A DNA stretch of 64,000 nucleotides from Spirochaetia bacterium (GCA_965215345.1 CBDCDL010000001.1:320163-384162); one strand, 5' to 3'. Counted from the stretch's first letter, positions 46,374 to 54,027 are shown. Program-made: numbers and translations. Notes: generated by a model from the sequence alone, not told the origin.

Positions 46374-49300
46374 GTGAGTGAACAGGACAAGGTTACGACG
46401 CCGAAAGACACCGCTCAGCGCAACCGATGGCGCGCCCTGATTGCTGGTTGTCTGGAGATCAAGGCGCGGTTCGAAGGAACGTTCGTGACGCTTGCGAAGA
46501 TCCTGAATACCCCCGTTCTGCTGCCGTTGATCGGCGGGTTGACATTCGTCGTCGTGTTTCATTTCGCGTACTCCGGCGTGGACGATGATCTGTATCAGGC
46601 TCGTGACGACGGTGTCATCACGCTGAGTCATGCCCGGAATCTCGTGGAATACGGGTTCATCGGAGTGAATCCTTCTGGAGGCCGTGTCGAGGGATACTCC
46701 GCGCCGGTTCAGTTCTTCCTGTTCGCCGCCGTGTACGCCGTTACGGGCACGGGCTACGCCGCTTACGCGACGGCACAGACCGTAGTCGCCACCTTCCTGC
46801 TGGGTGCGCTGTTCATACTGTTCTTCAGGAAGCGGAAGGTTCCGAGCCTGATCCTGACAGGGCTGGCTGCGCTGTTGCTCGCGTACGCCCGGCCGTTCAT
46901 CGAGTGGCATGGTTCGGGAATGGAGAACGCGATCACGCACGTACTCTTCCTGGCCACCGTGCTGACACTGGTCTCGTTTGTGCGGATGGAGCGGATCATC
47001 TACCCGCTGTCCTGCGTCGTGTTTCTGGCGACGATTTCGAGAATCGAGAGCATCTTCCACGTCGGCCCGCTGCTGGTCGTGTTCGGCGTATTCTGGCTGC
47101 TCGCGCTCCGGGACTGGCGCGGCATCCGCTTTGCGTTCGTCGTGCTAGGGCTGTGGGCCCTGTTCCAGGTGTGGCGGTATCACTATTTCGGCGAGTTACT
47201 GCCCAATACCGCCCACGCCCAGGGAATCTCCGTGTTCGACAACCTGCGCCCGTGGCTACGGTTGGACGTGGATCACATGCAGCGCGCTGCCACCCGTGCC
47301 CGGGACATGCTCGAGGTGCACGGCGGTATTGTGCTGCTGTTGGCGCTTCCAGCCACGCTAGTGGTCTCCCGCCGCCGGGAGACCGTCCTGTTGCTGCTCC
47401 TCATAGGTACTTTGGTCCTGACCGCCGCGCTTAACGAGTCGGTGTTCGGTCGCGACCGGATCGACCCGAACCGCACGACGACCCATGTGGCGGTGTTCTC
47501 AGCGCTGGGCAGCGCCCTGTTGCTGTTCGCCTGCCTTGACAACCGCCGGCGTGCATTGTGGGCCGCCCCGGCGCTCGGGCTGGTCGTGGTTGTCGTGTTC
47601 GGTATGAACGTCGTTCCTCCCTATCACTTGGGCTGGTCGACTGCCTCTTTCGAAATCCATAGAGACAAGTTCGCCGACATCGCGGCGGCAGAAGATCTAC
47701 CCCGAGCGACCGTAGCGAATCCTGATCTGGGCGCGATGAGCTACCACAAGCAGTTCAACATCGTGGATCTAGGGCGCATCGGTTCACCGATCATGGCGCG
47801 GACGTCGGGACCTGTCAGAGCCGACTATTTATTTGATTTCGCGGCCCCCGACATCATCGAGAGTCACTCCGCGTGGTCATGTGGTTACGATGGGGAGCTG
47901 TTCTCCGACCCCCGATTCGAGAAGCGGTATCAACCCGTTGAGACTTGGGTAACGGACTGGACCAGGAAGTGGTGTACATCCAACCCGGAATCCCAGTCCG
48001 GCTTCTGGATTCGTTCCGCGATTCTCAAGTCTTCGGAGTCCGCGGAGCGGCAGCTCATCGACCGGATGGCCGCGGACCCTTCCGCCGAGCGGCTCCGCGA
48101 CGAGCTGGCGAAGTGCCAGGCGATAGAGGACCCTGATTATCAGAATTGCGTGTACGTCGCCAGAACGGCTTGGCGGTTCCTGCCGGAACTGCGAAAGCAG
48201 CGCCAAGTCGATGCGCTCGACGATATCTTTTCGTCGAGCCTCAGCGCCGCCTTTGACCGCTCTCTCATCAACGGCCACCGCGACGGCCAGGCTCATCGCG
48301 ACGCCGTCGAGTTCATATGGGACAACTACCTGCGTGAGATCACAGACCGACAGCCGACCGTCAGCTCCGAGTTCGACGTGTATCTCGACGGGGAGGAGCT
48401 GATCTACGTCAAGCGGGGGTGCAGCGAGGAGGCCGTCACGCTGCCGTTCTTCGTGCACCTGATGCCGGTCGACCGGAGCGACCTGCCCGAGCATCGCAAG
48501 CAATACAAGTTCGACAACCTGGACTTCAGGTTCGAGGATGCCGGCGGCGTCAGAGAGGGCGATGTGTGCGCGGTAACGCGGAGGCTCCCGGACTACGAGA
48601 TCGCCGAGGTCAGAACCGGCCAGTACGTCTCCGGCGGCGAGCAGACGTGGAAGGTGAAGTTCCAGCCGGGTCAGACGCCGCCGGTACGCTCCCTGCTGGA
48701 CCGCATCGAAGCGCTGGACGGACCAATCATCAGCTCGGAGTTCGACGTATACCTCGACGGAAAGGAGCTGATCTACGTCAAGCGGGGGTGCAGCGAGGAG
48801 GCCGTCGCGCTGCCGTTCTTCGTGCACCTGACGCCGGTCGACCGGAGCGACCTGCCCGAGCATCGCAAGCAATACAAGTTCGACAACCTGGACTTCAGGT
48901 TCGAGGATGCCGGCGGCGTCAGAGAGGGCGATGTGTGCGCGGTAACGCGGGAACTCCCGGACTACGAGATCGCCGAGATCACAACCGGCCAGTACGTCTC
49001 CGGCGGGGAGCAGACCTGGAGGGTGGCATTCTCGACGGGCGGCACACCGCCACAGCCACAGCAGATCGCGACAGCGGCAGCGCAGCACGTCGGCACGGTC
49101 AGCGAGCAGCGTGAGACCGAGGAGGTCGTCGGCATCGACTCCCTCGTGGAACGCATCGAAGCGCTGGGAGGCCCCGTCGTCAGCTCGGAGTTCGACGTAT
49201 ACCTCGACGGAAAGGAGCTGATCTACGTCAAGCGGGGGTGCAGCGAGGAGGCCGTCACGCTGCCGTTCTTCGTGCACCTGATGCCGGTCGACCGGAGCGA

Positions 49301-50321
49301 CCTGCCCGAGCATCGCAAGCAATACAAGTTCGACAACCTGGACTTCAGGTTCGAGGATGCCGGCGGCGTCAGAGAGGGCGATGTGTGCGCGGTAACGCGG
49401 AGGCTCCCGGACTACGAGATCGCCGAGGTCAGAACCGGCCAGTACGTCTCCGGCGGCGAGCAGACGTGGAAGGTGAAGTTCCAGCCGGGTCAGACGCCGC
49501 CGGTACGCTCCCTGCTGGACCGCATCGAAGCGCTGGACGGACCAATCATCAGCTCGGAGTTCGACGTATACCTCGACGGAAAGGAGCTGATCTACGTCAA
49601 GCGGGGGTGCAGCGAGGAGGCCGTCGCGCTGCCGTTCTTCGTGCACCTGACGCCGGTCGACCGGAGCGACCTGCCCGAGCATCGCAAGCAATACAAGTTC
49701 GACAACCTGGACTTCAGGTTCGAGGATGCCGGCGGCGTCAGAGAGGGCGATGTGTGCGCGGTAACGCGGGAACTCCCGGACTACGAGATCGCCGAGATCA
49801 CAACCGGCCAGTACGTCTCCGGCGGGGAGCAGACCTGGAGGGTGGCATTCTCGACGGGCGGCACGCCGCCACAGCCACAGCAGATCGCGACAGCGGCAGC
49901 GCAGCACGTCGGCACGGTCAGCGAGCAGCGTGAGACCGAGGAGGTCGTCGGCATCGACTCCCTCGTGGAACGCATCGAAGCGCTGGGAGGCCCCGTCGTC
50001 AGCTCGGAGTTCGACGTGTACCTCGACGGGAAGGAGCTGATATACGTCAAGCGGCAGTGCAGTGAGGCGGACGTCACGCTGCCGTTCTTCGTGCACCTGA
50101 CGCCGGTCGACCGGAGCGACCTGCCCGAGCATCGCAAGCAATACAAGTTCGACAACCTGGACTTCTCCTTTGCCAAGATCGGTGGGATCAGAGAGGGAGA
50201 CGCGTGCGTGGTGACGCGGACGCTTCCCGACTACGACATCGTGGAAGTCAGGACGGGCCAGTATCGAAAGGTGGACGGGGGCTGGGAGCACCCGTGGAAG
50301 GGCGCGTTCGCCACGCCATGA
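46374..50321 (+). CDS. GT-C-fold membrane glycosyltransferase, candidate polyprenyl-phospho-arabinose-dependent. Its C-terminal extracytoplasmic region has five tandem copies (A-B-A-B-C) of an unassigned ~125-150 aa Cys-containing repeat domain.
   Basis: GTG at 46374 with a GGAGG RBS. ~450 aa multi-TM N-terminal domain with D-D motif [43 protein letters not shown] (paralogous to gene B's [13 protein letters not shown]...VEGYS). Repeats begin at [25 protein letters not shown]... Confidence 0.7.
48401..50038 (+). repeat. Near-perfect tandem duplication of an ~819-bp unit (48401-49219 and 49220-50038) inside the GT-C gene.
   Basis: Identical alternate-frame ORFs 48419..49114 and 49238..49933. 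Direct comparison of 48661-48720 versus 49480-49539 is identical. Only isolated mismatches were seen. Confidence 0.85.
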
Positions 50322-53278: not shown

Positions 53279-54027
53279 ACGAACGAGCCGAGACGGCGCT
53301 GGTGATCGGCGCCACGTCGGACATCGGCCGCGCGATCGCGCGCACGCTGGCGGACGCCGGCTGGGCGGTGCAGCTCGCGGCGCGCGACCGGGCGCGGCTG
53401 GAACGGGAAGCGCGCGACGTTCGCGTACGCGCGCAGGCTGCCGTGAGCGTGCATCGCTGCGACGTGCTCGACGCAGACGGAGGTGTCTCGATGCTCGATG
53501 AGCTCGATCCGCTGCCTGGCGTGGCCGTGTGCGTCGTGGGAATGCTCGGCGATCAGGCCGAGAGCCAGCGCGACCTCGCCGCCGCGGAGCGGGTGATGCG
53601 GACCAACTACGTCGGCCCCGCGCTGCTGATGGGCGCCCTTGCCGAACGGTTCGAGCAGCGCGGCAACGGCGTCCTGGTGGGCGTCAGCTCGGTGGCGGGC
53701 GAGCGAGGGCGCGCCGCCAACTACGTCTACGGATCGGCGAAAGCGGGGTTCACGGCGTTCCTGTCCGGGCTGCGCAACCGGCTGGCCGGTGCCGGCGTGC
53801 ACGTGGTGACGGTCAAGCCGGGCTTCGTGCGCACGCGCATGACCGACGGCATGGACCTGCCGGCGCGGCTGACCGCGCAGCCGGATGAGGTGGCGCCGTC
53901 CGTCCTCCGGGCGGTTCGCCGGCGCCGCGACGTGGTCTACGTGCGCCGTGTCTGGCGTCCGATCATGCTCATCGTGCGCGCCGTCCCGGAGCGGCTCTTC
54001 AAGCGCATGTCCGTCCGGGCGAGGTAG
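53275..54027 (+). CDS. dprE2: Decaprenylphospho-2'-keto-ribose reductase-like SDR (DprE2 ortholog).
   Basis: 250 aa. ATGA overlap with the GT-C gene. Aligns along its length with Mtb DprE2: [61 protein letters not shown], and the C-terminal [26 protein letters not shown] tail. Confidence 0.8.

Follow-up and report, generated by a model that had tools for sequence, protein, structure and literature searches.

A stretch of 64,000 nucleotides (nt) from a Spirochaetia bacterium (GCA_965215345.1, CBDCDL010000001.1:320163–384162), referred to here as the window and numbered from its first letter, carries two adjacent genes, A and B, whose predicted products join a GT-C-type membrane glycosyltransferase part to a C-terminal array of closely similar modules. 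An earlier reading of this DNA made without database searches (the sequence-only reading) had marked the arrays as a recent expansion or an assembly hazard. The genes and repeat units are laid out as follows.

46374–50321, + strand: gene A, GT-C-type membrane glycosyltransferase, 1315 amino acids (aa), five C-terminal modules; start as called in the related contig L001
48359–49177, + strand: 819-nt block, copy 1, with A1 (type a, 48359–48658), linker (48659–48727), A2 (type b, 48728–49027) and linker (49028–49177)
49178–49996, + strand: 819-nt block, copy 2, with A3 (type a, 49178–49477), linker (49478–49546), A4 (type b, 49547–49846) and linker (49847–49996)
49997–50321, + strand: terminal unit A5 (type c) and the stop of gene A, which overlaps the gene B ATG (ATGA, 50318–50321)
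50318–53278, + strand: gene B, AftB-like GT-C glycosyltransferase, 986 aa, three C-terminal modules; identical to protein P0001
52135–53278, + strand: gene B array, with B1 (type b, 52135–52434), long linker, B2 (type a, 52585–52884), short linker and B3 (type c, 52954–53275)
53275–53278, + strand: ATGA in which the gene B stop overlaps the next ATG
53275–54027, + strand: DprE2-like short-chain dehydrogenase (NCBIfam PRK07102), the first 4 codons of which (MNER) lie in the tract shared by A and B

Repeat units of genes A and B

Repeat finding delineated eight units of ~300 nt, each encoding ~100 aa, that start at 48359, 48728, 49178, 49547 and 49997 in gene A and at 52135, 52585 and 52954 in gene B, with start-to-start distances of 369 or 450 nt. 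There are three unit types: a, which is followed by a 69-nt linker; b, which is followed by a 150-nt linker; and c, which is terminal. The module order is a-b-a-b-c in gene A and b-a-c in gene B. Over the repeats, the sense frame has the expected excess of guanine and cytosine (GC) at third codon positions. An antisense open reading frame (ORF) of 834 aa (47877–50381) was rejected as a gene, its codon-position GC pattern being a mirror of the sense frame.

The head-to-tail duplication of 819 base pairs noticed in the sequence-only reading is borne out, as 48401–49219 and 49220–50038 differ at 3 of 819 positions (49046, 49199 and 49211) and the exact-match run reaches leftward to 48394. Self-BLAST at the 819-nt offset gives 96.2% identity over 1088 nt. 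In the register of the modules, the duplicated block is 48359–49177 plus 49178–49996, with six mismatches, five of which cluster in 48368–48393. Each copy runs from a 300-nt unit a through a short linker of 69 nt and a 300-nt unit b to a long linker of 150 nt, and units A2 and A4 show no difference over 300 nt. Judged from the sequences, repeat identity of such length cannot arise by chance. The expansion had also been called recent, and this agrees with a difference of 0.4% between the two 819-nt copies, compared with 4–25% among the a, b and c unit types.

Unit A3 is preceded by a long linker, as is unit c, and its first ~20 nt are the same as those of c and of the a unit found in L001. Because the duplication junction falls in the first ~20–35 nt common to units a and c, unequal homologous recombination is the mechanism that we propose. 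The 819-nt in-frame tandem duplication turned an ancestral a-b-c array of gene A into a-b-a-b-c, as would follow if the start of unit c on one chromatid had crossed over unequally with the start of unit a on the other chromatid.

The likeness extends from one gene to the other. Unit pairs of genes A and B are 89–95% identical in DNA and the whole gene B array aligns collinearly with part of the gene A array at 91.4% over 1087 nt, in keeping with the near-identity reported from the sequence alone. The junction sequence CCATGAACGAACGA said to follow both genes is present at positions 50316 and 53273 and nowhere else in the window. Homology between the two tails (91.8% over 377 nt) runs 13 nt beyond the stop codons and ends abruptly at 50334/53291, so that the shared tract takes in the ATGA where stop and start overlap, as well as the opening codons of the downstream gene. 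The catalytic halves (the N-terminal ~600–660 aa) are only distant paralogues: they share 26% identity over 249 aa (E 2e-7), and searches with each of them recover separate homologue sets. Homologues of gene A are 40–67% identical to it, with the module present in 56 of 120.

The sequence-only reading had proposed that gene B, or its tail, arose by duplication together with the downstream start. This proposal holds for the tail and fails for the gene as a whole: since the catalytic halves are 26% identical and the tails 89–95% identical in DNA, a tail with its translational-coupling junction, rather than an entire gene, was copied or converted recently. Near-identical tails and an identical 3′ junction are what a whole-gene duplicate of gene A, or a single gene mis-assembled as two, might also display. 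We regard both of these as very improbable, given the distant catalytic domains with their different homologue sets and the presence of both genes in unchanged order in L001, each with its distinct catalytic domain. The single mis-assembled gene, which had been named earlier as an outcome that would overturn the reading, is thereby set aside.

The proportion of synonymous differences (pS) is 0.13–0.20 between matched A/B units (A2/B1, A3/B2 and A5/B3) and about zero between the duplicated copies. Relative to pS, the proportion of nonsynonymous differences (pN) is low, with pN/pS values of 0.16–0.78, below 1 throughout; by this measure the units are shown to be under purifying selection and therefore to encode functional protein. 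The first 35 nt of A1 have five differences from A3 and from the A1 of L001, three of which are common to B1, and by this pattern the 5′ end of A1 is a small inter-gene conversion tract. Conversion tracts thus moved sequence between genes A and B, and the terminal unit was transferred in one of them along with the ATGA overlap and the 13 bases that follow.

In relatives of either gene, a single module is the ancestral state. The window units are 75–100% identical in DNA to each other, and units A3, A4, A5 and B3 have at most 58% protein identity to modules of A-type or B-type relatives outside the lineage of the window and L001, so these comparisons do not single out either gene as donor of the tail. 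Lineage-specific likeness of units, in-frame differences of whole units and mosaic units were all found, a combination that fits concerted evolution by recombination.

Copy-number difference between the window and a related contig

A near-identical relative of the array region lies on L001, a 49-kb ENA metagenome contig (ERZ25070786 ctg147327l) that carries a cluster-mate of gene B. Positions 758–13702 of L001 are collinear with window positions 40689–54016, a 13.3-kb block with ~98% identity and unrelated flanks. Divergence across the block is mosaic, at about 0.1–0.4% in 43.4–50.5 kb, ~2% in the catalytic half of gene B and 7–8% in 42.5–43.4 kb. The GC content of genes A and B is 62–65%, against ~70% in their surroundings. 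Taken together, the mosaic divergence, unrelated flanks and lower GC content suggest a recombining or transferred cassette.

The unit count of gene B is three in the window and in L001 alike. Gene A of L001 encodes 1190 aa with four units in the order a, b, a/b hybrid, c, and is exactly 369 nt shorter than the window version. One alignment offset fits L001 up to position 9333 and the other fits from 9232, which places the crossover at window 49257–49282/49626–49651 (~25 nt), and L001 has private substitutions in the hybrid-unit region. The expectation that copy number varies is thus upheld by this comparison with a related contig, with five units in the gene A of the window and four in that of L001 at a background divergence of ~0.1–0.4%. 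An unequal crossover between units A3 (a) and A4 (b) would have removed or added 369 nt in this near-identical relative.

A clean one-unit difference is also seen in a second lineage, between P0034 and P0127 (~89%-identical proteins). Protein P0266, found by exhaustive search, equals the L001 gene A product in length (1190 aa) and in module count (four). A word-indexed protein search with the N-terminal domain of gene A returned neither gene A nor its L001 version, and a metagenome scan with the gene A catalytic domain found relatives of at most 44% identity and no further alleles.

The enzymes, their modules and the surrounding pathway genes

The family profile of gene B matches AftB (9dlf) with an E value of 3.7e-8 and aligns D40-D41 with D61-D62 of that enzyme. 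Residue D41 is invariant in 115 sequences, and the DD pair of gene A (78–79) aligns with that of gene B. In AftB, the catalytic DD motif is located at the tip of the first juxtamembrane helix, with D62 being the residue in M. chubuense AftB (PMC12041299). An AlphaFold model of gene B (mean predicted local distance difference test score, pLDDT, 77) has AftB 9dlf_C as its best PDB match (E 1.2e-6, TMt 0.48), with further fold matches to ArnT, AglB, AftA, PglB, OST and EmbB, and the tail of the full-length model resembles strings of FnIII/cytokine-receptor domains. A GT-C fold in the model and a DD motif in the alignment are thus both found, as in AftB-like GT-C(A) enzymes. By homology, gene B (and distantly gene A) is a remote AftB relative and a GT-C membrane glycosyltransferase. 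Orthology of gene B to AftB was rejected: NCBIfam NF041481 scores 21.9 bits against a cut-off of 1050 (E 4e-5) and matches the N-terminal 260 residues only. From the neighbouring genes, we predict that A and B transfer arabinofuranose from a polyprenyl-phosphate donor.

The module itself is widespread. A hidden Markov model built from the units finds it in 119 of 136 gene B relatives, as one copy in 93, two in 13, three in 4 and four in 9. Among the genomic loci, one copy is present in 49 ORFs, two in 5 and three in 5, with four in L001 gene A and five in window gene A. By exhaustive profile search, 2356 cluster representatives carry the module, and the largest number in a single protein is 10 copies. 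For the 150 best proteins with several copies, the highest identity between modules of one protein is 65% at the median and at least 95% in five; on this scale, repeated expansions form a continuum that has the window array at its young end. Domains found in other carriers are, among others, Wzy_C (O-antigen ligase/polymerase type; 10 copies), PMT/PMT_2 and polysaccharide deacetylase, and in the cases examined all fusion partners are envelope-glycan enzymes.

Module-bearing genes often occur in tandem arrays of up to six paralogues. Head-to-tail arrays of 3–6 module-bearing GT-C paralogues were seen in loci L007 (2058–14850), L003, L016 and L027, and one 5.06-Mb contig encodes six proteins of 490 to 1033 aa that are at least 90% identical (cluster of P0002).

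The structural model of the module (pLDDT 89.2) is mostly beta, with seven strands and short helices, and forms a beta-sandwich. Two cysteines are nearly invariant. The linker before each module contains a short helix, and the linkers are long and partly helical or disordered in the model. The module has no Pfam match even at E ≤ 10 and no PDB sequence match by profile; Foldseek, run with the model against PDB and BFVD (viral models), gave nothing at E ≤ 0.001. A word-indexed search with one 121-aa unit likewise gave no match; this reflects the sensitivity limit of the tool, since thousands of proteins carry the module. A second unannotated module of ~150 aa occurs in relatives (P0002 residues ~600–760 and P0006 residues ~700–860; …GEQF.G.FE.G.DGW…HIMLDHVML…), where it either follows the repeated module or separates it from the catalytic part.

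Upstream of gene A lie four further genes on the same strand.

41956–43436, + strand: UbiA-family polyprenyl-phosphate phosphoribosyltransferase (PRK08238 type; NCBIfam), in two frames that are split at a G21 tract (42325–42345)
43442–43864, + strand: GtrA-family small membrane protein (Pfam GtrA_DPMS_TM), candidate flippase for a lipid-linked sugar
43864–45192, + strand: DprE1-like FAD oxidase (NCBIfam NF053785, Pfam FAD_binding_4)
45273–46283, + strand: 336-aa protein with no family match; a gene is called at the same place in L001

PRK08238 matches the UbiA-family gene with 438.9 bits (cut-off 351), with profile positions 5–110 in the frame 41956–42456 and 111–479 in the frame 42234–43436; the decaprenyl-phosphate phosphoribosyltransferase models give 101–140 bits, below their cut-offs. 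GtrA_DPMS_TM at 43442–43864 scores 32.5 bits, above its cut-off of 26.1. The DprE1 model NF053785 matches 43864–45192 with E 8e-130 and 434 bits, below its cut-off of 500. The dehydrogenase at 53275–54027 gives 346 bits with PRK07102 (cut-off 267), a generic short-chain dehydrogenase family and its best match, and, with the DprE2 model, E 2e-58 and 198 bits, below the cut-off of 250. By these scores the DprE1-like and DprE2-like proteins are clear homologues and putative orthologues. The 336-aa ORF has no Pfam or NCBIfam match and is conserved, among the fetched loci, in L001 only.

Homologues of the pathway genes lie within 10 kb at 8–9 of 22 loci with module-bearing GT-C genes, compared with 0–2 of 59 loci without the module. 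From its gene content, the locus appears to make a polyprenyl-phosphate-linked arabinofuranose donor. Loci L006, L016, L030, L031 and L040 encode DprE1-like proteins 74–84% identical and gene B catalytic domains 50–70% identical to those of the window, and the metagenome-assembled genomes (MAGs) from which they come are labelled Bryobacterales, Thalassobaculaceae, Pseudomonadales, Binatia, Dehalococcoidia, Latescibacterota and Nitrospirales. If the labels are taken as they stand, such identities across phylum-labelled MAGs would imply cross-phylum transfer of the cassette. Many of these MAGs look as if they were HiFi assemblies from host-associated samples, and many of the related MAGs may be symbionts of sponges or other aquatic hosts. 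Literature searches on arabinofuranosyltransferases in sponge symbionts and on the MAG accessions found nothing relevant.

The G21 tract lies at the exact frame break of the UbiA-family gene (ORFs 41956–42456 and 42234–43436) and is the only homopolymer of at least 9 nt in the 64 kb. Its L001 counterpart (2388–2403) is G16 plus an extra T. Both lengths are out of frame; G19 or G22 would give one protein of ~480 aa, and the intact homologues in L006, L030, L031 and L040 read through a short Gly/Ala-rich stretch at the position of the tract. The tract could be a phase-variation switch, a mark of a pseudogene or a homopolymer consensus error. Ten G/C runs of 15–24 nt occur in 1.68 Mb of loci, where about 0.1 are expected by our estimate (a chance model, not the genome background), and five of them are in or at the edge of annotated UbiA-family, GT-C or module-bearing ORFs. 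In MAGs of different phylum labels, several of the runs fall within GT-C genes or at their 5′ ends. The pattern resembles slipped-strand phase variation, with the reservation that consensus lengths of homopolymers are unreliable. Runs of this length are located as follows.

L029: 9897–9920
L007: 15789–15811 and 19847–19867
L027: 11098–11114
L041: 11801–11816 and 18206–18220
L008: 9985–9999
L004: 3570–3584

Downstream of the cassette, at 54057–58867, are three tandem gene copies of ~1.6 kb with 90–92% DNA identity that encode ~530-aa AAA-type ATPases (AAA_22/AAA_35/AAA_16). This triplet has no PADLOC and no NCBIfam match, and it is absent from L001, where an AAA_14/DUF4143 gene occupies the position on the other strand. 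The GC content of window positions 1–4000 is 58–63%, compared with about 70% elsewhere.

Interpretation and comparison with known systems

We favour, with a probability of roughly 0.6, the reading that the arrays are periplasmic, probably glycan-binding modules on GT-C enzymes that are reshaped by unequal recombination and gene conversion. As assembled, the two contigs show the in-frame tandem duplication, the whole-unit difference from a relative and the inter-gene conversion, gene junction included, that make up the recombination part of this reading. On the functional side, the modules would lie in the periplasm, after an AftB-like periplasmic domain and with two nearly invariant cysteines in each module. 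They may act like the C-terminal carbohydrate-binding modules (CBMs) of EmbC, AftD and GT136 ORF12 by holding the polymer acceptor, in which case module number would change reach or avidity, not catalysis.

Several points weigh against this view. The unit counts of the window and of L001 are those of the assemblies, and a collapsed assembly of L001 would leave the same a/b hybrid as a true crossover, so the hybrid is not proof of one. The UbiA-family gene is frameshifted in both assemblies, and the pathway may therefore be off. The module is unlike known CBMs and structures: no likeness to a described CBM or Pfam family was found, and its best Foldseek hit (E 9e-3, TMq 0.42) is a generic Ig/FnIII-like resemblance. 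Its periplasmic location is predicted from AftB homology and the conserved cysteine pair, and the case for carbohydrate binding is one of context. In the GT136 prototype the CBM is dispensable for activity (PMC11127046), so copy number may have little phenotypic effect.

If the array of the window were mis-expanded or a strain chimera, or that of L001 collapsed, the true copy number might be equal in the two. Repeats of 300–819 nt at 94–100% identity are places where assemblers fail, both sequences come from metagenome-type assemblies, and collapse of A3 with A4 would give exactly the hybrid unit of L001. We nevertheless consider such an artefact improbable. The two long linkers of gene A are present independently in both assemblies, the 819-nt copies are not perfectly identical, and the reading frame and the signature of purifying selection are kept in all array versions. 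The window assembly also resolves the three 1.6-kb gene copies at 90–92% identity, the 977-kb source contig and the name of L001 (‘ctg...l’) suggest to us long-read assembly, and whole-unit differences recur in another lineage and across the family. For users of these genomes, repeat counts and homopolymer length at this locus are not trustworthy without long reads.

A real duplication is also compatible with modules that serve as rigid spacers or a stalk, as protein–protein interaction domains or as envelope anchors that position the enzyme. The lack of likeness to any CBM family, the resemblance of the gene B tail model to FnIII/cytokine-receptor strings, which are often spacers or protein binders, and the long, partly helical or disordered linkers all speak for such roles. 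However, the module is fused, among the cases examined, only to glycan-processing membrane enzymes, and C-terminal beta-sandwich modules in such a context bind the acceptor glycan (PMC11127046); we hold these roles to be rather unlikely. Selection might also act on the instability itself, with array changes and poly-G slippage varying or switching surface arabinosylation, for example against phage or host recognition. The G21 tract at the UbiA frame break, the sole long homopolymer of the window, compared with G16 in near-identical L001, the recurrence of long G/C runs in related loci, several of them in GT-C genes, and an array copy number that changed against a ~0.1–0.4% background are consistent with such a contingency locus. 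It is nonetheless an unlikely account: homopolymer lengths are unreliable in long-read consensus and those given here are the consensus of two assemblies, the two out-of-frame lengths also fit a decaying gene, and repeat instability occurs without selection. The broadest version, in which a new glycan-binding family with hypermutable copy number acts together with poly-G switching to vary a surface arabinofuranose glycan in many phyla, with horizontal spread of the cassette, seems to us doubtful.

With at least 2356 protein clusters, no Pfam or solved-structure match and arrays of 1–10 copies on several classes of envelope-glycan enzymes, the module is a candidate for a new family, carbohydrate-binding or spacer, that merits a name of its own. 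As assembled, the window and L001 catch an array as it changes length and passes between two genes, illustrating how such tails diversify, and the locus would extend machinery of the decaprenylphosphoryl-arabinose (DPA) type well beyond Mycobacteriales.

Among known systems, mycobacterial AftB, a terminal beta-(1→2)-arabinofuranosyltransferase, resembles gene B in its GT-C fold, in the DD pair at D61-D62 and in a mixed alpha/beta domain after the last transmembrane helix (PMC12041299). It differs in having no C-terminal module array and in its 19% identity to gene B in the structural alignment. The mycobacterial DPA pathway (UbiA/Rv3806c, DprE1, DprE2 and Rv3789) has counterparts in the window in UbiA-type, DprE1-like, DprE2-like and GtrA-family neighbours, the two Dpr matches being below the equivalog cut-offs. 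Of the 79 loci returned, none is from Mycobacteriales; the closest relatives come from MAGs labelled Dehalococcoidia, Latescibacterota, Gamma- and Alphaproteobacteria, Acidobacteriota and others.

The three-component pentofuranosylation systems described by Kelly et al. in 2024 combine PPPRS, a flippase and the GT-C enzyme GT136 ORF12, with DprE1/E2 added for arabinofuranose, and the C-terminal Ig-like CBM of ORF12 binds the acceptor polysaccharide (PMC11127046). The window follows the same logic, with candidates for a polyprenyl-phosphate ribose synthase that depends on phosphoribosyl pyrophosphate, for a small transporter in the membrane and for the epimerising enzymes, and with a GT-C enzyme that has a beta-rich end. 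The prototype has one CBM, a MATE-type flippase and one GT-C enzyme, whereas the window has arrays of 3 and 5 unclassified modules, a GtrA-family candidate and two GT-C enzymes. In EmbA/B/C and AftD, according to the passages of PMC11127046 that summarise them, beta-sandwich modules in the periplasm make contact with the arabinan acceptor and affect how large the product becomes. These enzymes are likewise CBM-bearing GT-C proteins, and EmbB and AftA are among the fold matches of gene B, but their CBMs occur singly, are not identical to one another, do not vary in number and have no sequence or significant fold likeness to the window module.

Outside glycan assembly, the alpha C protein of group B streptococci and SasG/Aap of staphylococci have surface repeats that change in number by homologous recombination. 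The window arrays share with them near-identical, in-frame, whole-domain repeats, strain-variable number and concerted evolution. Those proteins are adhesins or antigens without enzymatic parts, whereas the window array is a glycosyltransferase tail common to two neighbouring genes. Campylobacter, Neisseria and Haemophilus have glycan genes that are phase-variable through poly-G/C tracts. Here, too, a surface-glycan gene contains a long homopolymer where its frame breaks, and two near-identical sequences have it at different lengths; the window lineage differs in being uncultured, high in GC and environmental or host-associated, and its tract, with lengths taken from consensus, is a candidate switch only. 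Repeat arrays driven by recombination, CBM tails on GT-C enzymes and pathways of the DPA type are each known singly; the new elements are an unclassified module family, its occurrence on enzymes of glycan assembly in multi-copy arrays of variable number, and the swapping of such arrays by neighbouring genes.

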